Shown here: piece after piece, positions 1,813 to 30,419 of the stretch | How positions within the stretch are numbered: the stretch's first letter is position 1 | Layout of the letters: every line of letters starts with the position of its first letter | From: an uncultured Muribaculaceae bacterium | Lineage (GTDB): Bacteria > Pseudomonadota > Alphaproteobacteria > Rs-D84 | DNA: 32,000 nucleotides | Assembly (NCBI GenBank): GCA_965231035.1 | Contig: OZ246409.1 | Coordinates: forward strand, 541,101-573,100 | Direction of reading: 5' to 3' | Notes under the pieces: model-generated | Databases searched by the model: none | What the model saw: the letters and a program-made list of their open reading frames with translations, nothing else | Told to the model about the DNA's origin: nothing | Translations under genes and position numbers: made by a program

Positions 1813-3125
1813 TTTGTCACCTTATCCAGTTCAGATTTTATATCACCAATAGCTAATGCCACAGCGGCACGTTTTGTAAACAAATCGTATCTGGCAGCAT
1901 TGTGTTCTTTTTGGGCATCCGCTAAATCGGCCTGGGCTGTTTGCCAATCCAGCATGGTTGCACGTCCAACTTTATACATTCCAGCTGTGACACGTTCGCT
2001 TTCTGTTGCGGATTTTAATAATATTTCAGTCTGGGATAAAACATTCTGGGCGGTTTTATAATTTTGATACGCTGTGAACACATCCAGCGTGGCTGCATCA
2101 GATGTTGCTCTTTCTTGGGCCTGTGCACGTTCATAAGTGGCGTTTGCACTGCGAACCCCATACATATTAGCAAAACCAGCAAATATTGGCATAGATGCAC
2201 GAATTCCAATACTGCCGCTGTAACGGCTGTTTGCAGGGTCATATGTATCCGGTGATGGGTTATAAGATACAGTTCCAGTTGCAGATATACTTGGTAAATT
2301 TTTCAAAAATGTCGAGTTTCTACGATGCCAAGCAGCCTCGCGATTAGCGGTGGCACTAAGCAGATCAGGTCGGGTTTTCTTTGCTTGGTCAATAAGGTCA
2401 TCAATACTTTTGTTTTCGGTACTTTTTCCAAAATCTGATGGCATATCAGAAATTTTAATATCCTGGTCAGCAGAGAATGAAAGTTTTGAAAGTAATGTTC
2501 CCTTGGCAATTTCACGATTATTTTTTGCCTTTTCTACTTCCAGAATACGAGTAGCAAGTGAAGTATCTGCTTTTAATACATCAGCCCGTGCCACTGCACC
2601 AGCTTTGAATTTTTTATCTGCTGTGTCGCGGGCAGTTTGTGCAGCGGTTTTTAATGCCTGAGCTGTTACAACGTCTGCATTCGCGTTAAGCAACGAATAA
2701 TAAGAACCAATAATACCATAAACATAATTTTGAACAGATTCGTCATAATCGAAACCAGTGGCGCGCCATGTTGCAGCCAAAGTATTTAAATCTTCTAATC
2801 TTTTTCCAAAATCAAAAATCAAATAAGACGCCGATAAAGAAGCACCCTTTGACCAATCGTCCCATTCACGATTTTGATAATTTTTTGTTGCTGAAACAGA
2901 TGCGCTTACACTGGGTAAGTATTCTGCATAACCAGCATTTTTGTTTAATCTGGCTGCTTCGGATGAAAGATAAGCAGCGGAAGTTGTTGGATTTCTGCAT
3001 AATCCCAGTTCAATTACTTGCTGTAAAGACAGCTCGCCCGATGGGACATTCTTTATGGATAAACAATCATCATAAGCAAATGCGACAGAAGGCAAAAAGC
3101 AAAATGCCAAAATTATTTTCTTCAT
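1809..3125 (-). CDS. TolC-family outer membrane efflux protein
   Basis: 438 aa with a signal peptide (MKKIILAFCFLPSVAFA). It shows a two-fold repeated coiled-coil/beta organisation with typical TolC motifs (LSLQQVIELGLCRNP..., YLPSVSA). It is the first gene of a three-gene efflux operon. Confidence 0.85.
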   Translation of the reverse strand: MKKIILAFCFLPSVAFAYDDCLSIKNVPSGELSLQQVIELGLCRNPTTSAAYLSSEAARLNKNAGYAEYLPSVSASVSATKNYQNREWDDWSKGASLSASYLIFDFGKRLEDLNTLAATWRATGFDYDESVQNYVYGIIGSYYSLLNANADVVTAQALKTAAQTARDTADKKFKAGAVARADVLKADTSLATRILEVEKAKNNREIAKGTLLSKLSFSADQDIKISDMPSDFGKSTENKSIDDLIDQAKKTRPDLLSATANREAAWHRRNSTFLKNLPSISATGTVSYNPSPDTYDPANSRYSGSIGIRASMPIFAGFANMYGVRSANATYERAQAQERATSDAATLDVFTAYQNYKTAQNVLSQTEILLKSATESERVTAGMYKVGRATMLDWQTAQADLADAQKEHNAARYDLFTKRAAVALAIGDIKSELDKVTK

Positions 3126-3239: not shown

Positions 3240-3313
3240 GGCTCGGTGGCAGAGTGGTTATGCAGAGGACTGCAAATCCTTGTATGCCGGTTCGATTCCG
3301 ACCCGGGCCTCCA
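3240..3313 (+). tRNA. tRNA-Cys (GCA)
   Basis: 74 nt. The acceptor stem GGCTCGG/CCGGGCC pairs (one G-U). The anticodon loop is CTGCAAA with GCA in the anticodon position. A GGTTCGATTCC T-arm and an encoded CCA end are present. Confidence 0.93.
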
Positions 3314-3328
3314 AATTCAGGTTTAAGA

Positions 3329-3385
3329 TTTGAGATTTAAGGTTGAAAGTAAAATTATAAATTTCCTCAAACCTTAAATCTCAAA
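3329..3385. repeat. Perfect 16-bp inverted repeat (hairpin) between tRNA-Cys and recF
   Basis: TTTGAGATTTAAGGTT (3329-3344) is the exact reverse complement of AACCTTAAATCTCAAA (3370-3385). The loop is 25 nt. The right arm ends 10 nt before the recF ATG, and no T-run follows. Confidence 0.6.
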
Positions 3386-3395
3386 CCCTAAAACT

Positions 3396-7601: not shown

Positions 7602-8663
<1,062 letters not shown>

Positions 8664-8675
8664 TCAATTTCTGTG

Positions 8676-8747
8676 GATGTCTGATTGTATTTGATTTCGG
8701 TCATGTAACATTTGTACACTCCCCTCATCAAATACTGCACATGCATC
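8676..8747 (+). repeat. Hairpin-forming intergenic repeat, copy 1 (3' of mreB)
   Basis: It aligns by eye with 16109-16180, sharing CGGTCATGTA and TACACTCCC blocks. The 9-bp stem is GTATTTGAT (8687-8695) / ATCAAATAC (8727-8735). An inner mini-hairpin TGTA..TACA is present. Confidence 0.6.
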
Positions 8748-8768
8748 TCATATAAATTAATTAAAATT

Positions 8769-8789
8769 ACCGCCGTATGGCGGTTTTTT
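8769..8789 (+). terminator. Rho-independent terminator after mreB and repeat copy 1
   Basis: ACCGCC-GTAT-GGCGGT followed by TTTTTT. Confidence 0.75.
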
Positions 8790-8860: not shown

Positions 8861-9085
8861 ATGGAAAAAAACAAGCAAAATATTGAGCAACCAAAAGAAC
8901 AGCTTTCGTTTGAAGAAGCATATAAACAATTAACAGAACTGGTTAAAAAAATGGAATCAGGTGAATTGCCTTTGGCGGATTCTGTTGCAGCTTATGAAAA
9001 AGGTATTAAATTAAAGGCTTATTGTGAACAAGTTTTAAAAGAAGCCGAATTGAAAATATCTACAATTACAAATTTGGATAAATAA
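8861..9085 (+). CDS. xseB: Exodeoxyribonuclease VII small subunit
   Basis: 74 aa. LSFEEAYKQLTELVKKMESGELPLADSVAAYEKGIKLKAYCEQVLKEAELKI matches the helical-hairpin XseB pattern. Confidence 0.85.
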   Translation: MEKNKQNIEQPKEQLSFEEAYKQLTELVKKMESGELPLADSVAAYEKGIKLKAYCEQVLKEAELKISTITNLDK

Positions 9086-9102
9086 TCTTAAAGGCACCCG
9101 CT

Positions 9103-11712
9103 TTGAATCAAAATAATAAACTTACGCCCGTTATGCAGCAATATGTAAATATGAAGTCTGAAAATCCGGACGCGGTTTTGATGTTTCGTTTGGGTGATTT
9201 TTACGAAGCTTTTTTTGATGATGCAAAAACAGTTAGTCGTGCTTTGGGACTGGTTTTGACCCAACGTGGTACAGATGGTATGGGTTCTGATATTCCGATG
9301 TGTGGAATACCTTGGCATGCTGCGGATAATTATTTTGGCCGTCTTGTTCGTGAAGGTTTTAAGGTTGCGCTGGTTGAACAAATGGAAACACCTGCCCAGG
9401 CCAAGGAAAACGGGCATAAGTTTATAGAAAGAAAAGTTGTTCGGGTTTTAACGCCGGGTACACTGACTGATGAAAATTTATTGTCCCCAAAAAAATCAAA
9501 TTTCCTGGTCGCTGTTGCACCAAAAAGTCCTTTTGGTTTTGATATAGCTGGTTGTGATATTTCAACTGGTGAATTCTTTATTGGTATTTCGGAAAACATA
9601 ACCGATGATATGGTTCGGATTAATCCGGCAGAAATTATTTATCCAGAAAAATATTCAGAAACCAAGGATATTTTACGCCTGCGGGATGTTTTCAAAACAA
9701 CACCTGTTTATGAGAAACTTTACAATCGTTCAGACATAGATCAGATTGTTTTCAAAGTATTTGGTCAAAATGTTGATTTCAAAACAGAGTATGTAAAAGA
9801 TGAAAAAACATCTGTTTTTGATGATAAAGCCATAGCGTTATTGGCGGGGTATTTATTTAATACTCAACGTGGTGCAAATATTGCTTTTCGTGCACCGTAT
9901 TCTTTCAAGGCAGGAAAACAATTATTAATCGATTCGGCCACTTGGAAAAGCTTGGAAATCGATTCGGCTATAAACGAAGGTGGTGTATGTCTGATTGATA
10001 TCTTGGATAAAACCAGAACAGCCGCTGGGGCACGTCGTATGCGTTCCTATTTACGAACTTTATCGGGCGATGTTGGTGAAATTCGTCGCCGCCAGGAACA
10101 TATTGGTCATCTGATTTTGAATTCTGATGTTATGGGTAATCTGTCACAAATATTGATAAGAACACCCGATGTTGGGCGCAGTTTGGCAAGGTTATTGTCT
10201 GGGCGTGGCACACCGCGTGATTTAAGGCATGTTTCAGATTTTATGGCAATACTGCCAGATGCCAAGGTTGCTGGTGTCAAATTGGATTCCGGTATGGCAG
10301 AGAAGTTTTCAAATATTAATACCCACGACATGCTGGCTGGAAAATTAAAATTTGCATTATCTGATGAATTACCAACTTTCTTTCGCGAAGGCGGGGTTAT
10401 TCGCACCGGCTTTGACCCCGGGTTGGATAATATGAAACAGTTGGCAAACGGTGCCAAAGAAACAATTGCAAAATTACAATCTGAATATATCGCCCAAACC
10501 GGTGTTAATACACTGAAAATCAAATATAATAATATTTTGGGATATTTTATAGAAGTCCCAAGCGCACGTGCAGATTTTCTGATGAAACCTGAAAATGGTT
10601 TTATACACCGTCAGACTATGTCGGGAAATATGAGATTTACCACATCAAAGTTGATTGACCTGGACAATGATGTTCGCAGTGCTGCTGAAAAGGCGGCCGG
10701 AATCGAGGCTGAAATAATTTCAAACTTTATAGAAGAAATAAGGATTGTTTCAGATGATTTGTTAAACACGGCCGAAGTCATAGCAGATTCAGATGTTTGG
10801 TATGCGTGTGCAACAGTTGCATCTGAATATTCATGGGTTCGTCCAACTGTTTCAGAAACAACTCAATTTGATATCAAAGGTGGTCGTCATCCTGTTATTG
10901 AATGTGTTTTGCGTGATCGTGGGGATCAGTTTGTTAAAAACGATTGTAATTTGAATAATAAAAGCATCGCATTGTTGACCGGACCAAATATGGCTGGTAA
11001 ATCAACATATCTGCGTCAGAATGCTTTGATAGTTATCTTGGCACATTTGGGGTCTTTTGTTCCGGCGGAAAGTGCAACCATTGGAATTTGCGATCAGTTG
11101 TTTTCTCGCGTTGGTGCATCTGACAATTTGGCCGCAGGACAGTCTACATTTATGGTCGAAATGGTCGAAACTGCAAATATATTAAACCGTGCAACAAATA
11201 AGTCGTTTATAATTTTTGATGAAATAGGCCGCGGAACAGCAACATACGATGGTATGGCAATTGCCCAGGCTGTGTTGGAATTTTTAGATACATTAAAACC
11301 CAGAACGCTTTTTGCAACCCATTATCATGAATTGACCCATTTGGTTAATGATAAATCAGAAGGTTTAAAGTTTGTTCAATGTTTGACCATAGATGTACGC
11401 GAACATAACAATGAAATAATCTTTATGCATAAAATTATTCCAGGTGTTGCGAATCGCTCGTACGGAATTCATGTCGCCAAAATGGCAGGAATTCCAAAAT
11501 CGGTTGTATTGCGTGCAGAACAAGTTTTGGAAGGTTTAGAAAATAAATCATTTCAGATTCCAGAAAAAATTGAAACCGAAGACAATGTGGTTGTGGAAAC
11601 TGTTGCACCTGAAAAAATTCAAAATATTATTGATGAACCTGGTATAAAACTGGTCGAAGAAAAAGTTTCTGCGCCAGTGAAGAAAAAACAACTTTCGCTT
11701 TTTGGGGAATAA
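9103..11712 (+). CDS. mutS: DNA mismatch repair protein MutS
   Basis: TPVMQQYVNMKSENPDAVLMFRLGDFYEAFFDDA (mismatch-binding domain), LLTGPNMAGKSTYLRQ (Walker A), STFMVEM and DEIGRGT are present. The C-terminus carries a QLSLF beta-clamp-binding motif. The start is TTG at 9103 with AAAGG upstream; the alternative ATG at 9133 would remove the conserved TP. Confidence 0.95.
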   Translation: MNQNNKLTPVMQQYVNMKSENPDAVLMFRLGDFYEAFFDDAKTVSRALGLVLTQRGTDGMGSDIPMCGIPWHAADNYFGRLVREGFKVALVEQMETPAQAKENGHKFIERKVVRVLTPGTLTDENLLSPKKSNFLVAVAPKSPFGFDIAGCDISTGEFFIGISENITDDMVRINPAEIIYPEKYSETKDILRLRDVFKTTPVYEKLYNRSDIDQIVFKVFGQNVDFKTEYVKDEKTSVFDDKAIALLAGYLFNTQRGANIAFRAPYSFKAGKQLLIDSATWKSLEIDSAINEGGVCLIDILDKTRTAAGARRMRSYLRTLSGDVGEIRRRQEHIGHLILNSDVMGNLSQILIRTPDVGRSLARLLSGRGTPRDLRHVSDFMAILPDAKVAGVKLDSGMAEKFSNINTHDMLAGKLKFALSDELPTFFREGGVIRTGFDPGLDNMKQLANGAKETIAKLQSEYIAQTGVNTLKIKYNNILGYFIEVPSARADFLMKPENGFIHRQTMSGNMRFTTSKLIDLDNDVRSAAEKAAGIEAEIISNFIEEIRIVSDDLLNTAEVIADSDVWYACATVASEYSWVRPTVSETTQFDIKGGRHPVIECVLRDRGDQFVKNDCNLNNKSIALLTGPNMAGKSTYLRQNALIVILAHLGSFVPAESATIGICDQLFSRVGASDNLAAGQSTFMVEMVETANILNRATNKSFIIFDEIGRGTATYDGMAIAQAVLEFLDTLKPRTLFATHYHELTHLVNDKSEGLKFVQCLTIDVREHNNEIIFMHKIIPGVANRSYGIHVAKMAGIPKSVVLRAEQVLEGLENKSFQIPEKIETEDNVVVETVAPEKIQNIIDEPGIKLVEEKVSAPVKKKQLSLFGE

Positions 11713-15790: not shown

Positions 15791-16090
15791 ATGGATATGG
15801 GATCATTGATGGAGCAGGCAAAACAACTGCAAAGCAAAGTTGCAGCCGCCCAGGATAAATTGGCAAAAACAAGTATCAAGGGTATTGCTGGTAACGGTCA
15901 ATGCATTGTCGAGATGTCTGGCAAATATGATCTTTTGAATCTGACCATATCCCCAGAATTATTAAAGAATGATGTTACACACCTAACCCAGGTTATTATG
16001 GATGCGTTTGCTGATGCCAAGTCCAAGGCAGACGCGACCATAGATAAGGTTATGGGTGATGCAACTGCTGGTATGCCACTGCCAGAGTAA
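15791..16090 (+). CDS. ybaB: YbaB/EbfC-family nucleoid-associated protein
   Basis: 99 aa. MEQAKQLQSKVAAAQDKLAKTSIKGIAGNGQCIVEMSGKYDLLNLTISPELL...VIMDAFADAKSKA matches the YbaB pattern. Confidence 0.85.
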   Translation: MDMGSLMEQAKQLQSKVAAAQDKLAKTSIKGIAGNGQCIVEMSGKYDLLNLTISPELLKNDVTHLTQVIMDAFADAKSKADATIDKVMGDATAGMPLPE

Positions 16091-16108
16091 AATATTAAAT
16101 ATAATAAA

Positions 16109-16180
16109 GCATCTGCTTGTTTTTGATACCGGTCATGTAGGTTTACTACACTCCCTTTATCAAAAACTACGCATCTACAT
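16109..16180 (+). repeat. Hairpin-forming intergenic repeat, copy 2 (3' of ybaB)
   Basis: Same family as 8676-8747. The 10-bp stem is GTTTTTGATA (16119-16128) / TATCAAAAAC (16158-16167). The loop CCGGTCATGTAGGTTTACTACACTCCC is conserved, and the inner hairpin is TGTAG/CTACA. Confidence 0.6.
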
Positions 16181-16216
16181 CATTCTATTTAATATTTAAA
16201 AAAGTGCAAAAATAAC

Positions 16217-16257: not shown

Positions 16258-16333
16258 GGATGTTTAGCTCAGTTGGTAGAGCATCTCGTTTACACCGAGA
16301 GGGTCAGGAGTTCGAGTCTCTTAACATCCACCA
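16258..16333 (+). tRNA. tRNA-Val (UAC)
   Basis: 76 nt. The acceptor stem is GGATGTT/AACATCC. The D-arm AGCTCAGTTGGTAGAGC is present. The anticodon stem is TCTCG/CGAGA with loop TTTACAC (TAC). GGAGTTCGAGTCTC forms the T-arm, and CCA is encoded. Confidence 0.93.
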
Positions 16334-18059: not shown

Positions 18060-19133
18060 CTAACCTTTTTGGTTTAATCGCAGTTGCCCACAGGCACTGC
18101 CGATATCTTGACCTCGCTCTCTCCGAATTCTGGTGTGAATACCGTTTTTAATCAATATATCCTGGAATCTGTGTACCGCATTCCCAGAAGGTGACTTAAA
18201 ATCACGTTCATCAACCGCATTCCATGGTATTAAATTTACCATACAGTTCTTGGTTGTCAATAATTTTGACAATTCTTCGGCATTTTCGACCGAATCGTTT
18301 GTCCCAGCCAACAATATATATTCAATCATCAATTGACGGTTATTTTTGGCCACAAATTCAAACGCAGCGTCTATAACCTGTTCCAGATTATACTTTGTGT
18401 TTATAGGCATTAAACGTTCACGCAGGGCATCGTTTGGTGCGTGTAATGATATTGCCAGATTAACTGGTTGCCCCCATTCAATCAATCTTTGTATTCCAGG
18501 AACAATACCGCATGTTGAAACAGTAATCTTTCGCCAGCCAATTCCCAAATCTTGGTGCAGTCTTTCCATAAAGCCAATTGTGTTTTCTGTATTTTGTAAA
18601 GGTTCGCCAGTGCCCATAATAACCACATGTGAAACATCGTTATTATTTGGGTCACCGTTGGGTTTTACGTTTTTATTGTCGTTATCGCCACGAAGTGCCC
18701 AACCGGCGGTTAAAACCTGGGCAAACATTTCATTTACGGTCAAATTGCGTTTTAATCCCAGTAATGTGCTGGCGCAGAACTTACATCCCATTGCACAGCC
18801 TGCCTGTGAGCTGACACAGACACTGTTCCCATAGCTGGTTCGCATTAAAACGGATTCTATTTGTTCTCCGTCTGCCATTTCCAGCAAAAATTTAGTGGTT
18901 TGACCATCAGATGATTCAAGCTTTTTAACAATCTTGCAGGGCAGGGTTGTTGCAATCTTATCCAAGTCGTTACGCAGATCTTCTGGAAGGTTTTTCATAA
19001 CAGAAAAATCAGGTGCCCCCCTTTCCAACCATTCATTGATTTGTTTTGCACGAAATTTTGGCTGACTGATGGATACAATAAATTGTTCCAGTTGAGCAGG
19101 GGTCATATTGAAAAGAATTTGCTTATCAATCAT
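18060..19133 (-). CDS. rlmN: Dual-specificity 23S rRNA/tRNA adenine-C2 methyltransferase RlmN (radical SAM)
   Basis: FRAKQINEWL is at the N-terminus. The radical-SAM cluster motif is GCAMGCKFCAS (CxxxCxxC), followed by VIMGTGEPL and the C-terminal GSACGQL Cys. 357 aa. Confidence 0.92.
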   Translation of the reverse strand: MIDKQILFNMTPAQLEQFIVSISQPKFRAKQINEWLERGAPDFSVMKNLPEDLRNDLDKIATTLPCKIVKKLESSDGQTTKFLLEMADGEQIESVLMRTSYGNSVCVSSQAGCAMGCKFCASTLLGLKRNLTVNEMFAQVLTAGWALRGDNDNKNVKPNGDPNNNDVSHVVIMGTGEPLQNTENTIGFMERLHQDLGIGWRKITVSTCGIVPGIQRLIEWGQPVNLAISLHAPNDALRERLMPINTKYNLEQVIDAAFEFVAKNNRQLMIEYILLAGTNDSVENAEELSKLLTTKNCMVNLIPWNAVDERDFKSPSGNAVHRFQDILIKNGIHTRIRRERGQDIGSACGQLRLNQKG

Positions 19134-19966
19134 ATTTTATAATTTTTATCATTTATAATAATAACAGCCTTGCGACGTAATTGTTTTAACTGTTGATCGG
19201 CTGTGAACATTGCTTTTTTATAAATAGCATTTTGTTTTATAATGTCATCCAGTTTTCCATATTCTTTGGTCTTTTTAATATCACATACCAAGAATACTGA
19301 ATTATCCTGGGGTTTTGACCAAGTCAACTTTGGCAAGCCCACAACAGCTTCGCGAACATCTTCGGATAGTTCATATTGTTGAGCTGTAAATTTTTGTGGT
19401 GCACCACCAAATTTGCGTGCAATATCCATTGCGTCATCACAGCTTTTTGGTTTTGTTAATTTTGCAGAAACATCGGATGGAATATCAATTAATCTGACCA
19501 GTGTCATTTCCAATGGTAAACCTTTGGCACGTTCCAAGTCCTGTTTTTGTTGATCTATTTCACTGTCAGAAACGTCTATGGTTGGAACAATTGTTCTGGC
19601 TACGACCATTTGCCACGCGATGTTCGCATTGACTGCTGTTTTTGCCATTGCAAGTTCTGTTGCTGTCATATCACCCAAATTCATAGAATTTAATTCTTTT
19701 TTAACGTCCTGGTCTGAAGGTTTTGCATTAAAGTTTGCTGCATAATCCAGTTTTACATAATCATCAATAATGTTTTGAAATGCCTTTCTGCGATTATCTG
19801 TGGACGTATCACCTTGCTTTGCCATTAATTTAGTTCTGGCGGTTATGTCTGTGTCTGTTACAGGTCTGCCACCAATAGTTGCAACAACAGATGCAGCAAA
19901 TGACGAAGTTATAACCGAAACAGAAAAAATAACCGTTGATAAAAGTTTTAATTTTACATTCTTCAT
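19130..19966 (-). CDS. SurA-like periplasmic chaperone with a degenerate parvulin-like C-terminal half
   Basis: 278 aa with a signal peptide (…VITSSFAAS). The N-terminus is SurA-like (VATIGGRPVTDTDITARTKL). It sits directly downstream of lptD as in the conserved lptD-surA arrangement, with AGGGA as RBS. Confidence 0.6.
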   Translation of the reverse strand: MKNVKLKLLSTVIFSVSVITSSFAASVVATIGGRPVTDTDITARTKLMAKQGDTSTDNRRKAFQNIIDDYVKLDYAANFNAKPSDQDVKKELNSMNLGDMTATELAMAKTAVNANIAWQMVVARTIVPTIDVSDSEIDQQKQDLERAKGLPLEMTLVRLIDIPSDVSAKLTKPKSCDDAMDIARKFGGAPQKFTAQQYELSEDVREAVVGLPKLTWSKPQDNSVFLVCDIKKTKEYGKLDDIIKQNAIYKKAMFTADQQLKQLRRKAVIIINDKNYKI

Positions 19967-19980
19967 ATTTAATCCCTTTT

Positions 19981-21996
19981 TTACAATCTCATTCCACCAA
20001 TGTTTAACCCAAATCGGAACTGTATAGTTGTGTTTCCGACATAGTCTTCTTTGACCGCGTTATCGCGGCGATATTCCAAAGACAAGAAATAACAAGGGTG
20101 AGTGTAAACTATTCCACCTGTGTGACGTTGGAATTTAGAATCTGTAATGTTATAAATAGCGTTAAACTTTATTCCTACACGATCTGTCATTTGAATACCA
20201 AAACCACCAGATACTTCGTTTATATTTTTATCCATTGTGTGCGCGTCCAAGAACTGTGCGGCCCAAATATGACCAACGTCAAAATAATTTCTGGATGAGC
20301 CAATTCTGGCAGAATTTTCTATGTGTCGTAACGAGAAAGTATCTTGGGCCAAACGGAATCTGGTAGAAAACTGCAACCAATCTGTATTTTCATATCCAAT
20401 TCTGCCGACATAATCAGATTGCCCGTTGTGAAATCCACTGTTTGGGTCTGTATCAATACGCTTGGTAAAGTCATAAGTTTGTCCCAAAAACGTTTCAATG
20501 TTTTGTCCATTGTTATCAAAAGTTGCAAATCTGACACCGTAATCGCTGAATGTTCCATTTTCCCACAAATCTAATCCAGAAAAACGATTGTCAGAAAATA
20601 GTGTCGCATCTGACAATAATGCACCCGCAGAATCATTGTTTAAAGCAAATGCAGAATCATCCAAATTTTTCATAGTTGTTATTCTGGCGCGTGGTTCTAT
20701 GATTTGTGTCCAATCCTCGCCACTGCGTGCCAAAGGCAAACCCCATTCCAAATAACCACTTGGTAAAAATCTTGATTTTACACCGGTAAAATTTGTTCCA
20801 TCAATCATTTCTGTGTTACTGAAATTGTAAACATCATATCTGGCAGATAAATTAGCAGTAACACGATTTCCACCCCACATTGTCCATGGGGATACTATGC
20901 TGGATTCACCAATAACACGTTGGCTGGATACGCCAGACCCAGACACCCCAAGAACGTCAGTATTCAAACGAAGATATGTTTGTTCAAATAAAGGGTCTGT
21001 TTGATAAACACCACGAATGTTTGGTAAAATATCACCATTCGGCGCTAAATACTTTCCACTGGCAGTACGAAGTTCTTGAAACACATGTGTATCCGCAACC
21101 GCATATCCAGAATGTCCAAAAACTTCCACCTTGCCACCTGAATCCAAGTACGGTTGGTCACGATAGAATCCATATTTTTGCAAATAAGTTTTATCAGATG
21201 CACGTTGTAAAAATAATATTGTTCTGACATGGTCACCCATTTCAATAACATCTTTATTAAAGGCATGCCAACGGTTTAACCCTTCTTTGTTATTTGTATA
21301 AGATCCAGAAGTTCTAAATTCAGAATAATTACCATTCAGGCGATGTTCCACCTGAAATAGCGGATTTTCGTTAGTTAGATACGAAAACTTTAATGTTGCA
21401 TCGTGTTTTTCCGAAAAAGAAAGATAAAGAGGAATATTAAATTGTGTTCCCATATTATTTGTAGAATTTAAATCGGGTATTAACAAACCACTTTTATGTT
21501 TAACAGTTGGGTCTGGCATATCAAAAAAAGGAAGCCATGCAACAGGAACTTTGTAAACCCAAAACACAGGGTAATCAAAAGTTATTATTTTATTGTTGGT
21601 ACTGTGGGTCATCATAGACGAAGATATTTCCCAAGCATTTCCAAAGGAATCGCATTTATAGCAGGCTGTGAAAGTTGCATTTTCTGAAATTGTATCACCA
21701 TCTTTGCGAGTAACTTTTTCTGCTGTGACGTGAACATTATCATCCAACCAAATTTCTATATTATTACCAGATGTATCTTGACCTTTGTTTGAAATATAAG
21801 AATCTGTCAAAGTCATCTTTTGTCCAGACGTATTTTTAATCTCGGTCTGACCAGTTGTTTTTATAGCTTCGGATTTTATATTATATTCAATTTTTGGTGC
21901 AGAAATTGTTTTTGCAGATTCTATATCAACCAACTGCCCAGCAATTGATGCGCTGGGAATAAGAAAAAATAAAAATGCGGGTTTAATCAATTTCAT
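19981..21996 (-). CDS. lptD: LPS-assembly outer membrane protein LptD
   Basis: 671 aa with a signal peptide. The N-terminus is OstA-like, followed by a long beta-barrel with SGLLIPD, aromatic-rich strands and a beta-barrel C-terminus. It is flanked by lptG-like and surA-like genes. Confidence 0.85.
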   Translation of the reverse strand: MKLIKPAFLFFLIPSASIAGQLVDIESAKTISAPKIEYNIKSEAIKTTGQTEIKNTSGQKMTLTDSYISNKGQDTSGNNIEIWLDDNVHVTAEKVTRKDGDTISENATFTACYKCDSFGNAWEISSSMMTHSTNNKIITFDYPVFWVYKVPVAWLPFFDMPDPTVKHKSGLLIPDLNSTNNMGTQFNIPLYLSFSEKHDATLKFSYLTNENPLFQVEHRLNGNYSEFRTSGSYTNNKEGLNRWHAFNKDVIEMGDHVRTILFLQRASDKTYLQKYGFYRDQPYLDSGGKVEVFGHSGYAVADTHVFQELRTASGKYLAPNGDILPNIRGVYQTDPLFEQTYLRLNTDVLGVSGSGVSSQRVIGESSIVSPWTMWGGNRVTANLSARYDVYNFSNTEMIDGTNFTGVKSRFLPSGYLEWGLPLARSGEDWTQIIEPRARITTMKNLDDSAFALNNDSAGALLSDATLFSDNRFSGLDLWENGTFSDYGVRFATFDNNGQNIETFLGQTYDFTKRIDTDPNSGFHNGQSDYVGRIGYENTDWLQFSTRFRLAQDTFSLRHIENSARIGSSRNYFDVGHIWAAQFLDAHTMDKNINEVSGGFGIQMTDRVGIKFNAIYNITDSKFQRHTGGIVYTHPCYFLSLEYRRDNAVKEDYVGNTTIQFRFGLNIGGMRL

Positions 21997-23075
21997 TTTT
22001 TAAACAAGGCAAACAGTATTCCAGATAAAACAATTAATTGAGCTAACATCAATATTCCAAGTTGTGGTAAAGTTTCAACCATATTTGATGCAGACATAAA
22101 AAACGCCGAAACAATAGCCATTACAGCCACAGCAATAACTGGAGCAAAACTGGTTCTGCGACGCAACAAAGAAGTTCTAAGTAAAATAACAAGACATAGT
22201 GCAGCCAGGATAACATTCATCAATGGGCTTAACAGTCTTGTATAAATCTCGGTCAGGGTAAGTTTTTGTTGTTTCTTTAAAAGTTCATCTGAGGTTTTGA
22301 AAGATCTTTGATCCCAAGCATTTTTCAAAAGTTGTGTTGTTGGTATTCGTCTGACTTTGAATACAGATTCACCAACCCTGTCAGCAATATTTAAATCCAT
22401 ATCAAAACTATCAAAAGTTCCAATTGTTAAATTATCATCTCTGGATTGTAATGAACCATTATTCATAACAATAGAAAGGCCACGGGCAGTGGAAATTAAT
22501 TTTCCTTTTTCTGCAAATATTGTCCTTTCGGCACGTGGACTACGTGAATCATAAAGAATTATTTGTGATAAATCGTAACCAGATACTTTATCCACATAAA
22601 CGACTAAACCTTCGGCCATTTGGTTAAATGCTGATTCTTTTAATTTCATATGTGCCAAGCCGTAACGTAATTCCCATTGAGTATCGTAAAACTTGGCCTG
22701 GGTTACTGGGACAGCCCAAATATTTAAACCCCAATTTATAATTGTTAAAAACAAAACCAAAACCATAGCAGGTTTTGCAACTTGACGTGGGGACAGGCCT
22801 GATGCCGCTAAAACTGTAATTTCATTATCGCTTATCAATTTGTTGTAAACAAACATAATCGCAATAAAAGTAACAAAAGGTATTATGATTGAAACAATAA
22901 AAGGAATCATCAGAACTGTCAGACCAATAAAACTGTATACTTCTACACCATAATTTATAAGGAACTTCATCAAGGACATGATTTGCAACATCCATGCAAG
23001 ACCGGTCAAAACCAAAAGCAACATTGTAAATATTGTAATCAGTTGCTTTGTAAAGTAGCGTTTGATAATTTTCAT
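21993..23075 (-). CDS. lptG: LptF/LptG-family LPS export permease (position suggests LptG)
   Basis: 360 aa. MKIIKRYFTKQLITIF is the typical YjgP/YjgQ N-terminus. It has 3+3 TM helices with a large periplasmic loop and an ATGA overlap with lptD. No Shine-Dalgarno sequence precedes the ATG. Confidence 0.8.
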   Translation of the reverse strand: MKIIKRYFTKQLITIFTMLLLVLTGLAWMLQIMSLMKFLINYGVEVYSFIGLTVLMIPFIVSIIIPFVTFIAIMFVYNKLISDNEITVLAASGLSPRQVAKPAMVLVLFLTIINWGLNIWAVPVTQAKFYDTQWELRYGLAHMKLKESAFNQMAEGLVVYVDKVSGYDLSQIILYDSRSPRAERTIFAEKGKLISTARGLSIVMNNGSLQSRDDNLTIGTFDSFDMDLNIADRVGESVFKVRRIPTTQLLKNAWDQRSFKTSDELLKKQQKLTLTEIYTRLLSPLMNVILAALCLVILLRTSLLRRRTSFAPVIAVAVMAIVSAFFMSASNMVETLPQLGILMLAQLIVLSGILFALFKK

Positions 23076-23079
23076 AAGT

Positions 23080-23359
23080 TAGGTTGTGTTGACACTATTT
23101 ATACACCAACGGCGGCAGGGAATTTCAATCAAGAACCAGGATTTTTGCGTAGAATGTATATTATACATCCAAGCAGAAATCCGCAGTTATTGATTCAAAT
23201 TCACACCGTTTTGTTACTTTGCCCTGCCTCTGTTATATAAATATATCATCTATTTGCGAAAATCATCTTGCTGTATAACATACAGCCACGCCAGTTTTCA
23301 CAAATATCTAATATATTTATATAACATCGTTGGCGTATAAATAGTGCCAACACAACCTA
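23080..23359. repeat. 280-bp nested palindromic element (32-bp terminal inverted arms enclosing two long hairpins)
   Basis: Arms 23080-23111 and 23328-23359 pair at 30 of 32 positions. Hairpin A spans 23112-23230 and hairpin B spans 23231-23326. Helix details are in the findings. Transcription of the minus strand is suggested. Confidence 0.7.
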
Positions 23360-23387
23360 GTATAAAGCCCAAACACGCCAGCGTCAA
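23359..23387 (-). promoter_or_regulatory. Candidate sigma70 promoter reading into the palindromic element and lptG (TTGACG-N17-TATACT)
   Basis: On the minus strand, TTGACG corresponds to 23387-23382 and TATACT to 23364-23359, with exact 17-nt spacing. The predicted start near 23351-23353 falls inside the outer arm of the element. Confidence 0.45.
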
Positions 23388-23428
23388 GCATCAACCCAGC
23401 CATTTTTCAGTAAAAATTATGTTTTTAC

Positions 23429-23457
23429 TTGCATTTTATCGATTCGGTGTTAATAAT
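23429..23457 (+). promoter_or_regulatory. Candidate promoter for nusA-infB (TTGCAT-N16/17-TAATAAT)
   Basis: The -35-like TTGCAT is at 23429-23434. The -10-like TAATAA/AATAAT is at 23451-23457. Confidence 0.35.
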
Positions 23458-23481
23458 TAGCCTGTTCTTAAATAAAAATTT

Positions 23482-23509
23482 GAGGGCGGGGTTGAAGAAC
23501 CCCGCTCTT
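23482..23509 (+). promoter_or_regulatory. Terminator-like GC hairpin in the nusA leader (possible attenuator)
   Basis: GAGGGCGGGGTT-GAAG-AACCCCGCTCTT forms a 12-bp stem (two G-U pairs) followed by TTTCAAT. It ends 8 nt before the AAGGAG RBS of nusA. Confidence 0.45.
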
Positions 23510-23531
23510 TCAATAAGCAAGGAGAAGTAAA

Positions 23532-25073
23532 ATGTCTTTTGTTTCAATGCCGCGTCAGGATTTATTATTGGCTATAGATTCTTTGGCCCAGGAAAAGCAA
23601 ATAGAAAAAAATATTGTAATAGAATCGCTAGAAGCTGCTATTGCCAAAATTGCCAAGCATAAGTTTGGTGAGGAATTTAATATTGTTGCAAATATTGATC
23701 GTAAAAATGGATCGATACATGTAAAACGATTGTTTGATGTTATTGAATCACCTGAATCTGTTGGCGAAGAAGAATATAATTCAAATACAATGTTAACTGT
23801 GGCCCAAGCTAAAAAATATTCCAAAGATCCACATGTTGGTGATGTTATCGAAGATAATCTGCCAGAACCTGAATTTGGTCGTATGGCTTTTCAAACTGCA
23901 AAACAAATTATGACTGCACGTGTCAGAGATGCAGAAAAAGGTCGTCAATTTGAAGAATTTAAAGAAAATATTGGTGACATTGTTAATGGTATTGTTAAAC
24001 GTATTGAATTTGGGAATGTTTTTGTTGATATTAACGGCAAGGCCGAAGGTTATATCAAAGGTACAGAATTAATTCCAGGCGAACGTTTGGCTGCTGGTGA
24101 CCGTGTTCGTGCTTTGATTATGGATGTTGCACGTTCTAACTCTGGCCCACAGATTTTCTTGACCAGAACACATCCTATGTTTATGGAAAAACTGTTTGTC
24201 CAAGAAGTTCCTGAAATTTATGAAGGTATTATCAAAATTAAATCTGTTGCACGCGCACCAGGCTCACATGCAAAAATTGCAGTTGAAACATCTGATCCAT
24301 CAGTTGACGCTGTTGGTATGACAGTTGGTATCAAGGGAACTCGTATTCAACCAGTTATTAACGAATGTCATGGTGAAAAAATCGACGTTATTTTATATTC
24401 CGAAGATCCTGCAGTATTTATCGTTAATTCTATGCAACCAGCCAAGGTTGCAAAAATTATTGTTGACGAAGATACACACACAGCAGCCGTAGTTGTTAAT
24501 GAAGATCAACAATCTTTGGCAATTGGTCGTCGCGGACAGAATGTTCGTTTGGCCTCTCAGTTGACTGGATGGAATATTGACGTTATGAGCGAAGCTGAAG
24601 AACAAGAACGCCGCGCCAAGGAATTTAAAGAAAAGACAGAACTGTTCATCAAAGGATTAGATGTTGATGAAATGATTGCGCATCTGTTGATTACTGAAGG
24701 TTTCAGAACAATTGAAGAAATTGCATTTGTTGATACTGCTGAATTAGAAGAAATCGAAGGATTTAATCCAGAATTGGCATCAGAATTGCAAACGCGTGCT
24801 AAAACTTATTTGACCAAATTGGAACAAGATTATAAAGAAGAAGGTCATAAATTAGGCATGAAAGATGATTTGTTGAACTTTGACTTTATCAAACGCCCGA
24901 TTATAATGAAGTTGGGACATAGTGGTATTAGATCACTGGCGGATTTGGCGGACTTGGCAACCGATGAATTGGTTGAAATGTTAGGCGAAGATAATATGTC
25001 AGAACGTTTGGCTTCACGCGTTGTTATGAAGGCACGTGAATTGGCATATAATATAAAACAGGACGAAGAATAA
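23532..25073 (+). CDS. nusA: Transcription termination/antitermination factor NusA
   Basis: 513 aa with LLLAIDSLAQEKQIEKNIVIESLEAAI at the N-terminus. It has an S1 region (GDIVNGIVKRIEFGNVFVDI), KH regions (GSHAKIAV...DAVGMTVGIKGTRIQ; AIGRRGQNVRLASQLTGW) and C-terminal HhH repeats. Confidence 0.95.
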   Translation: MSFVSMPRQDLLLAIDSLAQEKQIEKNIVIESLEAAIAKIAKHKFGEEFNIVANIDRKNGSIHVKRLFDVIESPESVGEEEYNSNTMLTVAQAKKYSKDPHVGDVIEDNLPEPEFGRMAFQTAKQIMTARVRDAEKGRQFEEFKENIGDIVNGIVKRIEFGNVFVDINGKAEGYIKGTELIPGERLAAGDRVRALIMDVARSNSGPQIFLTRTHPMFMEKLFVQEVPEIYEGIIKIKSVARAPGSHAKIAVETSDPSVDAVGMTVGIKGTRIQPVINECHGEKIDVILYSEDPAVFIVNSMQPAKVAKIIVDEDTHTAAVVVNEDQQSLAIGRRGQNVRLASQLTGWNIDVMSEAEEQERRAKEFKEKTELFIKGLDVDEMIAHLLITEGFRTIEEIAFVDTAELEEIEGFNPELASELQTRAKTYLTKLEQDYKEEGHKLGMKDDLLNFDFIKRPIIMKLGHSGIRSLADLADLATDELVEMLGEDNMSERLASRVVMKARELAYNIKQDEE

Positions 25074-29411: not shown

Positions 29412-29462
29412 TGAATTCTCCGGTCTTGATATTTATATCATCATTGATATACTATAAAGATT

Positions 29463-30419
29463 ATGAAAAAGCAAATCAAGAACCCTTTACCAGTCGCAAA
29501 GCAAGGAAGTGCATCGACAAGTTTAATGGCTATCCGGGGGGTATCAGATGAATCTGGTCTGGAACAATATATTCAGACTATTCAAAAGTTCCCAATACTT
29601 TCAGCCGAACAAGAATACGAATACGCAACAACCTGGCGATCTAAACAAGATATGACAGCAGCCGAGAAGCTGGTTGCCAGCCATTTGCGTTTGGTTGTTT
29701 CGGTTGCCTATGATTTTAAAAATTATGGAATTCCAGTTTCAGAGCTTATTGCCAGTGGAAATGTTGGTCTGATGCAGGCTTTACAAAAATTTGACCCAGA
29801 AAAAGGGTTCAGGTTTTCAACCTATGCTATGTTTTGGATCAAGGCCGAGATTTATGAAACAATTTTGAATAACTGGTCAGTTGTCAGAATTGGTACTTCG
29901 GCCAATCAGAAACGCGTTTTCTTTAATCTGGCGCGTGCAAAAAAAGCACTGGGGATTATGGATAATAATTTGTCCGATGACCAGACCAAGCAAATTGCAG
30001 AGTTCTTACAAGTCCCAGAAAATGATGTAACACGTATGGCGACCAGAATCAGCGCACGCGATTTATCATTAAATGCACCAGTTGGTAATGATGATTCCAG
30101 AGATGCACTTTCTAATCTGGCCGATACATCTGATGGCATCGAAGATAATATTGAAAGATTGGAATTCCGTCGTCGTGGATATGAAATGCTGCGCAGGCAT
30201 TTATCAGAATTACCAGAACGCGATCGTGAAATTCTGCATGCACGCAGATTACAAGATCCGGCAGCAACACTGGAAGTTTTGGCACAGAAATACAAAATAT
30301 CACGCGAAAGGGTTCGTCAAATCGAAGAACGCGCATACGCAAAATTACGTGATGCAATTTTAAAAGAGGAAGAATACATACCAGCAAAAAAAGGTGAGGT
30401 TATTGATGAAGCCATATAA
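29463..30419 (+). CDS. rpoH: RNA polymerase sigma-32 (heat-shock sigma factor RpoH)
   Basis: Region 2 motifs are LVASHLRLVVSVAYDFKNYG, GNVGLMQALQKFDPEKGFRFSTYAMFWIKAEI. The RpoH-box-like QKRVFFNLARAKK is present. Region 4 is TLEVLAQKYKISRERVRQIEERAYAKLR. Confidence 0.9.
   Translation: MKKQIKNPLPVAKQGSASTSLMAIRGVSDESGLEQYIQTIQKFPILSAEQEYEYATTWRSKQDMTAAEKLVASHLRLVVSVAYDFKNYGIPVSELIASGNVGLMQALQKFDPEKGFRFSTYAMFWIKAEIYETILNNWSVVRIGTSANQKRVFFNLARAKKALGIMDNNLSDDQTKQIAEFLQVPENDVTRMATRISARDLSLNAPVGNDDSRDALSNLADTSDGIEDNIERLEFRRRGYEMLRRHLSELPERDREILHARRLQDPAATLEVLAQKYKISRERVRQIEERAYAKLRDAILKEEEYIPAKKGEVIDEAI

Follow-up and report, generated by a model that had tools for sequence, protein, structure and literature searches.

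Type II MITEs with the terminal inverted repeats (TIRs) of IS5-family insertion sequences (ISs) include the BrickBuilt/MITE293/MITE700 elements of Porphyromonas gingivalis and the ATR elements of Neisseria, which have ISNme1 ends. MITEs that share their TIRs alone with IS5-family ISs have been documented (PMC4596501). The element described here, a nested palindrome upstream of the lptF gene in the 32,000-nucleotide stretch of DNA that was analysed (the window), is like those MITEs small, non-coding and intergenic, with IS5-family TIRs and a core unrelated to the IS (PMC4596501). Unlike them, it has other termini, two long nested hairpins and, across its family, arms of 30-44 bp, and just three copies of the family are known, in three uncultured genomes.

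The IS427 group, with IS1248 and ISPaes1 of Paracoccus as examples, is characterised by its size, inverted-repeat length, 2-bp direct repeat and frameshift, as tabulated for Paracoccus (Table 2 of PMC3281130). The window element shares its termini and TA duplication with an IS on the metagenome contig L004; unlike an IS427-group IS, it has no transposase and no internal similarity to an IS. The Correia elements (CREE/NEMIS) of Neisseria also duplicate TA. They are often found immediately upstream of genes, their paired TIRs are cut by RNase III, and one copy just downstream of the mtrCDE promoter is co-transcribed (PMC10969869). By analogy, the Correia element at mtrCDE would be the best functional parallel for the window copy. 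Correia elements are ∼100-150 bp long, have their own promoters and an IHF site and exist in hundreds of copies, whereas the window element is 280 bp long with nested hairpins, and a promoter scan of 22900-23600 detected no outward promoter in it. The ERIC/IRU elements of enterobacteria and yersiniae are imperfect palindromes that are transcribed in operons, fold in the mRNA and alter its stability; the likeness is one of description, and unlike the window element they are ∼127 bp long, form a single hairpin and have no known partner IS. As set out below, the window element is very probably a MITE with IS5/IS427-type ends, and its insertion separated a leaderless-type lptF gene from its promoter.

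Structure of the palindromic element

The nested palindrome spans 23080-23359 of the window (280 bp), and its terminal inverted repeats enclose two long hairpins. Terminal inverted repeats of 30 bp and a duplicated TA flank its non-coding core of 276 bp. The features of the locus are as follows (window coordinates, with the strand where one applies):

21993-23075, minus strand: LptF/LptG-family LPS-export permease gene, with no Shine-Dalgarno (SD) sequence; the insertion evidently parted its promoter from its ATG
23076-23079, minus strand: four ancestral nucleotides (ACTT) from the element to the ATG, which align with ...AACTT-ATG in relatives
23080-23081: left, lptF-proximal copy of the TA target (TA is present at both ends of the element)
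23082-23111: left terminal inverted repeat, whose outer 18 nt GGTTGTGTTGACACTATT (23082-23099) match the IS terminus
23112-23230: hairpin A, the best-conserved module among the three family members
23231-23326: hairpin B, built of a perfect 16-bp helix, an 11/12 helix and a 7-bp tip helix
23328-23357: right terminal inverted repeat
23358-23359: right copy of the TA target, whose T completes the -10 hexamer TATACT
23359-23387, minus strand: native lptF promoter-like site, TTGACG (23387-23382)-N17-TATACT (23364-23359)

The palindrome was first described from the letters of the window, without database searches, and most of that geometry holds. With the TAs counted in, the arms at 23080-23111 and 23328-23359 are complementary at 30 of 32 positions, which bears out the 32-bp inverted repeat with just two mismatches, both as located by the sequence-only reading; 100 dinucleotide-preserving shuffles of the window yielded no 32-mer as similar as these arms. 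All eight helices that had been listed are present, with 99/105 Watson-Crick pairs in total, and one C·C mismatch at 23126/23196 had gone unlisted. RNA folding recovers the Y-shaped three-way fold, with a minimum free energy of -135 kcal/mol for the minus strand (z -14.4) and -113 kcal/mol for the plus strand (z -13.9). The arm does end 4 nt before the ATG at 23075, and no Shine-Dalgarno sequence precedes that codon, as had been noted.

In size (50-1000 bp for MITEs, PMC4596501), in the absence of transposase coding and in its terminal inverted repeats, the 280-bp element agrees with a MITE. The longest stop-free run within it is 52 codons; this stretch has no homologue among 5.8 billion proteins, and a search for it as a spurious ORF call over further copies gave nothing. 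Long perfect palindromes can arise as chimeras, and an inverted duplication of this kind might be an artefact of assembly or amplification. The probability of such an artefact is negligible, because the element is identical in sequence in an independent JGI assembly (L001), whose contig ends elsewhere; homologues are also present in two other MAGs, and the TA duplication is clean.

Two other inverted repeats in the window adjoin tRNA genes. One, at 3319-3395 with 26-nt arms (88%), adjoins the tRNA gene at 3240-3310; the other, at 16090-16197 with 35-nt arms (74%), adjoins the tRNA gene at 16258-16330 and lies in a low-GC stretch (0.30-0.33 at 16-18 kb).

IS5-family termini and the YTAR target

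An exact scan for the 20-nt arm matched six metagenome contigs. In five of the six (L003-L007), the 20-mer TAGGTTGTGTTGACACTATT starts at the same base beside unrelated flanks. About two chance matches to a 20-mer are expected over the whole collection and none at IS termini. The sixth contig, L002, is eukaryote-like with Helitron/PIF1 ORFs and contains the 20-mer without the element, and this hit was treated as a chance match or fragment. On L004, two inverted copies of the 20-mer bound an 815-bp IS (2202-3016) with two ORFs, DUF4096 and DDE_Tnp_1, that overlap at an A7 slippery run. When rebuilt across the -1 frameshift, the transposase scores 238 bits on the NCBIfam model NF033580 (IS5 family, cut-off 110), and its nearest database protein is 64% identical. 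The length of ∼0.8 kb, 18-20-bp inverted repeats, 2-bp duplication and two frameshifted ORFs are the traits of the IS427 group (PMC3281130); the assignment is a match of features, with no ISfinder comparison behind it. The L004 IS is itself nested in the rve-type (integrase-core) transposase gene of another IS (1438-2214 region). L003, at ∼330-350, has an IS of just 67% identity; its site appears to be homologous and shows the same flanks, ATAC/TA...TA/GTTTATT.

Both outer arms of the window element, including the TA, are identical over 20/20 nt to the IS ends in L004-L007, so that its TIRs are common with those of an autonomous IS. Similarity to the IS ends with these outer 20 nt, and since the window element lacks a transposase it is a derivative or passenger, not an IS. 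TA is present at both ends of the elements in the window, in L017 (one of the other family members, described below) and in L004, and the flanks at independent ends with these termini fit Y-TA...TA-R at 11/11 bases. The target therefore fits YTAR with the TA duplicated, which in the window would read CTAA on the lptF-sense strand.

The IS is known from metagenome contigs alone. The IS-bearing contigs L004-L007 come from the termite-gut metagenome Ga0099364, which is also the source of L064 (Th196P3bin127), a MAG of the same alphaproteobacterial clade as the window; this hints that the IS lives in the clade. The exact 20-nt arm was absent from 185,579 species-representative genomes (the source genome is not among them) and from IMG/VR, and the conserved 25-mer GAAATCCGCAGTTATTGATTCAAAT was absent from viral contigs. 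BLAST searches of plasmids with the element and with the termini of the window and L017 copies gave nothing or chance-level matches.

It could be argued that the element is a MITE of another TA-duplicating superfamily (IS630/Tc1-mariner type) or a REP/RAYT-type palindrome, and that the IS5 match is coincidental. A TA duplication is also typical of IS630-family elements and suits that origin, and the 42 kb of the source genome that were read show neither an IS5-type transposase nor another partner IS; 1.3 Mb of relatives likewise contain no IS5-type transposase. The 20/20-nt identity, however, begins at the terminal base of an IS5-family IS and does so at several independent sites, and the YTAR target with a 2-bp direct repeat fits the IS427 group. 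REPs are not known to have TIRs with target duplication and are much shorter. Such an origin is thus very improbable, and an IS5/IS427-type derivation is retained here.

The ancestral lptF promoter and the empty site

The gene next to the element had been named lptG. The permease family is correct, while the profile scores favour LptF over LptG (176.6 versus 78.4 bits, both under the curated cut-offs), and the gene is called lptF here. Its predicted start MKIIKRYF aligns with the start in relatives. lptF is followed by lptD, an ORF of 278 amino acids (19130-19966, hereafter orf278) and rlmN, and on the other side nusA and infB diverge. The ORF of 278 amino acids had been read as surA; the ORF is present, and its name rests on a sub-threshold match to SurA_N_3 (E 0.0014, 18.9 bits versus a cut-off of 27.2). 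The window belongs to an uncultured gut-type alphaproteobacterium. Relatives of its LptF occur in MAGs that are labelled Alphaproteobacteria, “Rickettsiales” or “Candidatus Enterousia” and were recovered from termite guts, rumen, bird and mammal faeces, and digesters.

A near-consensus minus-strand promoter had been placed at the edge of the palindrome. The site is there, and TTGACG-N17-TATACT is the sole sigma-70-like site in the scan of 22900-23600. It is not a feature of the element: in ∼60 element-free relatives (68 loci, species-representative genomes), the end of TTGACG/TTGCAA-N17-TATACT is 7 nt (6-9) from the lptF ATG, and an SD is absent. From these alignments, the site is evidently the ancestral lptF promoter and lies outside the element, which supplies the final base alone of the TATACT hexamer. 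This leaderless-type arrangement of lptF is clade-wide. A possible outward promoter in the lptF-proximal arm was also considered; a TATAAA motif is common to the window and L066 copies, with no usable -35, is not conserved in L017, and drew no call in the promoter scan; the idea was dropped for want of support.

Two further observations concern promoters and leaders in the window. Upstream of a sigma-70-family gene at 29463-30419 (plus strand), a TATACT is spaced 9 nt from the ATG and an SD-like motif is missing (29440-29465), so that this is another candidate leaderless gene. The nusA leader contains a GC-rich hairpin at 23483-23508, GGGCGGGGTT-GAAG-AACCCCGCTCT, ∼25 nt before the SD; it is conserved throughout the close relatives and could act as an attenuator for the nusA-infB operon.

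In relatives whose LptF is 75-83% identical, the nusA-lptF spacer is the same but for the element, which is absent. The closest of them, with LptF 75-77% identical overall, have spacers of 212-258 bp, compared with 456 bp in the window. The relatives read GCTTGACGCTGGC...CTTTATACT, from which 7 nt lead straight to the ATG. Removal of 23082-23359 in silico, which leaves one TA, makes the window spacer colinear with those of relatives; the excised spacer is 85% identical to that of the closest relative (L010), and the junction differs by a 2-nt indel alone. The reconstructed empty site accordingly has 5 nt from TATACT to the ATG, against 6-9 (mostly 7) in relatives, a point that counts against a simple insertion; the loss of 2 nt in the T-run (23076-23081/23358-23364) apparently came with or after the insertion. 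The element is missing from the orthologous spacer in every relative examined (∼60 alphaproteobacterial MAGs). From the element-free orthologous spacers and the colinear alignment after excision, the 280-bp element is evidently a lineage-specific insertion that splits the -10 hexamer from the lptF start codon.

The sequence-only reading had left two accounts standing, a MITE-like insertion and a structured leader or regulatory RNA of the operon. The first is upheld by the empty orthologous sites, the TA duplication, the IS5-family termini and diverged copies at non-orthologous loci. One argument that had been offered for it falls away, which is the absence of lptF and rimP neighbours from this spot. 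In the closest relatives, infB-nusA is likewise divergent from lptF-lptD-orf278-rlmN, without rimP, and since element-free relatives also have neither rimP nor a second lptF/G gene, this absence is unrelated to the element.

The second account, a dedicated, vertically inherited cis-regulatory 5′ leader of lptF-lptD-orf278-rlmN, draws on the position of the element between promoter and ATG, where it would be transcribed, and on an extremely stable fold that is best on the sense strand. It conflicts with ∼60 genomes whose orthologous spacer lacks the structure, among them the relatives with 75-83% identical LptF, with homologues that precede unrelated genes, and with ends that are IS ends with a TA duplication. 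There is also no Rfam family for it, and none had been recognised from the letters: no model matched at the gathering threshold, and at E values up to 10 generic hairpin (miRNA-precursor) models appeared far under their thresholds. A dedicated leader is therefore extremely unlikely, and the comparison of orthologous spacers, which the sequence-only reading had itself named as a refuting check, refutes the regulatory RNA as a conserved leader.

Copies at other gene junctions and probable consequences for lptF

BLAST, an nhmmer profile and a covariance model, applied to 1.28 Mb of related sequence, identified two further copies, for a family total of three copies at three non-orthologous loci in three genomes. 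No fourth copy was found by the nhmmer profile or the hairpin A covariance model over the 1.28 Mb. A search for copies had been proposed as the check that would separate a MITE from a regulatory RNA; it gave two diverged copies at other loci, in other genomes, and just one copy in the 42 kb of the source genome that was read (the 9.4 kb left of the window hold no copy and no IS). The covariance model of hairpin A (R1) gives 127-133 bits on the three copies only, and its weak match at window 8628-8778 proved to be a common terminator region that precedes a small xseB-like ORF.

The L066 copy (positions 1-207) comes from a termite-gut MAG with a 51% identical LptF and is cut by the contig end, so that just one end is seen. 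It lies at the accB-accC junction, and its visible end abuts the accC ATG; in the closest relatives of L066, the junction is uninterrupted and the accB TAA stop is 1 nt before the accC ATG. The L017 copy (9076-9338) is complete at 263 bp, comes from a termite-gut MAG with a 71% identical LptF, and has 44-nt arms that are 82% complementary. It sits between orf278 and rlmN, which overlap or adjoin each other in the window and the other relatives, and the site is empty in relatives. Target duplication with presence and absence at orthologous sites is thus observed for both the window copy and the L017 copy.

The three copies are homologous along their length, and hairpin A of the window is 73-81% identical to its L066 and L017 counterparts. 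The outer arms of L017 and L066 have 55-65% identity to those of the window, yet are self-complementary within each copy. The apical stem of hairpin B, GCTGTAT/ATACAGC, is kept in L066 and reads GCCGTAT/ATACGGC, a compensatory change, in L017. For a plain MITE, it is unusual that the arms have diverged while hairpin A is better conserved with compensatory changes.

For each of the three copies, a start codon follows within 0-4 nt, and the orientation is the same; a crude gene model puts just ∼4% of the non-coding YTAR sites of these genomes in such a position. Targeting of start codons by the transposase was considered and then downgraded, since natural stop codons turned out to house the IS copies and the L017 copy. 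The autonomous IS copies L005, L006 and L007 are exactly in the stop codons of full-length genes, namely those of a RhuM-family protein, an unknown ORF and a SLAC1/TehA-family protein. In these insertions (L005 1473-1475, L006 117-119 and L007 188-190) and in L017 (9076-9078), TAG is regenerated: the duplicated TA and the first G of the element rebuild the stop, that of orf278 in L017, and the upstream ORF is unchanged. Both TAA and TAG stop codons fall under YTAR, and an insertion at such a codon is nearly neutral. The L017 and L066 copies are near starts because the stop of one gene adjoins the next start in tightly packed operons, and the window copy is the only one at a promoter-proximal CTAA.

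In termite-gut relatives, other, unrelated short inserts of heptamer-like repeats immediately precede these same start codons: in L013, L014 and L019 (lptF, rlmN), L039 and L075 (lptF), L072 (rlmN) and L074 (accB-accC junction). Examples are GTCACGAATTACGAATTACGAGTCACGAAT, CCACTAACTAACCACTAACC, ATTTACGATTTACGATTTG...CGTAAATCGTAAATCGTAAAT and CA-rich runs, some of them palindromic. The lptF, rlmN and accB-accC junctions look like general hot spots for small repeats.

Whether the fold matters at the RNA level is a separate question. In hairpin A, 38 consensus pairs across the three copies are paired in 93% of cells, and 6 pairs have changed on both sides, compared with 3.0±1.4 in shuffles and 0-2 with slid partners (three sequences). 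These compensatory changes show, at the level of aligned sequence, that hairpin A has apparently been maintained. L017 has the same outer-stem-plus-hairpins fold (z about -10 to -11), and its two strands are equally stable (sense -100.5 kcal/mol, antisense -103.6 kcal/mol). An excess of A·C over G·U mismatches on the plus strand had been taken as a sign of a minus-strand RNA; the 4:1 split in the window has a binomial p of 0.375 and L017 shows no strand bias, so that this sign does not hold up.

From such data, one may picture a mobile element whose hairpin module is under selection at gene junctions, a domesticated, function-bearing MITE and not a neutral passenger. The selected hairpin might serve as an RNase III processing site, an mRNA-stability insulator or a self-looping fold that keeps upstream signals and AUG adjacent. 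The pairing and compensatory pairs of hairpin A above controls in 73-81% identical copies, the whole Y-shaped fold kept in L017, and the placement of 3/3 copies before starts in one orientation speak for it, as does the cleavage of Correia elements by RNase III at paired TIRs. Against it, there are three sequences only, and palindromes can keep complementarity without RNA-level selection; the L017 strands are equally stable and the strand bias in the window is not significant; the start adjacency of L017 and L066 follows from stop-codon insertion, a habit of the IS copies L005-L007 too; and in a pairwise test over the whole element, 17 pairs are broken and 7 kept. A selected module is on balance unlikely, and we are equally doubtful that mobile Y-shaped palindromes persist at gene 5′ edges because the fold works in the mRNA, with hairpin A selected. 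If that were true, the insert would be looped out by its long outer stem, or RNase III would cleave that stem; the promoter or upstream stop would stay functionally adjacent to the SD-less start, and the element would serve leaderless-type genes and translationally coupled ones as a portable leader, self-neutralising or regulatory. With three sequences alone, RNA-level selection and DNA-level constraint on a palindrome are not separable. On the favoured reading, the palindromic build belongs to the element family at the DNA level and did not evolve as an RNA for the control of lptF.

For the insertion of a MITE, the following course of events is proposed. Since the outer 18-20 nt are IS427-type IS termini, an IS with the same ends most likely mobilised the element in trans, by DDE transposition into a YTAR site (CTAA), and the element would have landed between the -10 hexamer and the lptF ATG. 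From the unchanged promoter, transcription would start ∼7 nt after TATACT, inside the right arm and near 23352. The lptF mRNA would thereby gain a leader of ∼275 nt, in which an outer stem of 25 bp is predicted to enclose both hairpins. The predicted leader folds at -123 kcal/mol, and its last 10-12 CA-rich nucleotides and the AUG are predicted to be single-stranded (unpaired probability 0.6-1.0). Among 20 window genes checked, 7 lack an SD-like motif, which makes SD-independent initiation plausible; with the AUG unpaired in the model, lptF could still be translated in this manner. By analogy with Correia elements (PMC10969869), the long perfect stems of the leader are plausible RNase III substrates.

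The insertion leaves the lptF ORF intact, and 10 contigs of a public assembly collection encode the identical LptF protein; for the element itself, confirmation comes from two independent assemblies, represented by the window and by the JGI contig L001. What looked like an attractive candidate riboregulator of an essential LPS-transport operon is thus explained by a transposon insertion, and a false lead is spared. The family adds an undescribed pair of a MITE and an IS427-type IS from uncultured gut Alphaproteobacteria, whose TA/G ends regenerate stop codons. At the same time, the locus is a natural experiment in which 278 bp of extremely stable hairpin split the promoter/start unit of an essential gene while the gene remains intact, in an organism that has been recovered in several metagenomes. 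It could inform how SD-less genes tolerate long structured leaders.
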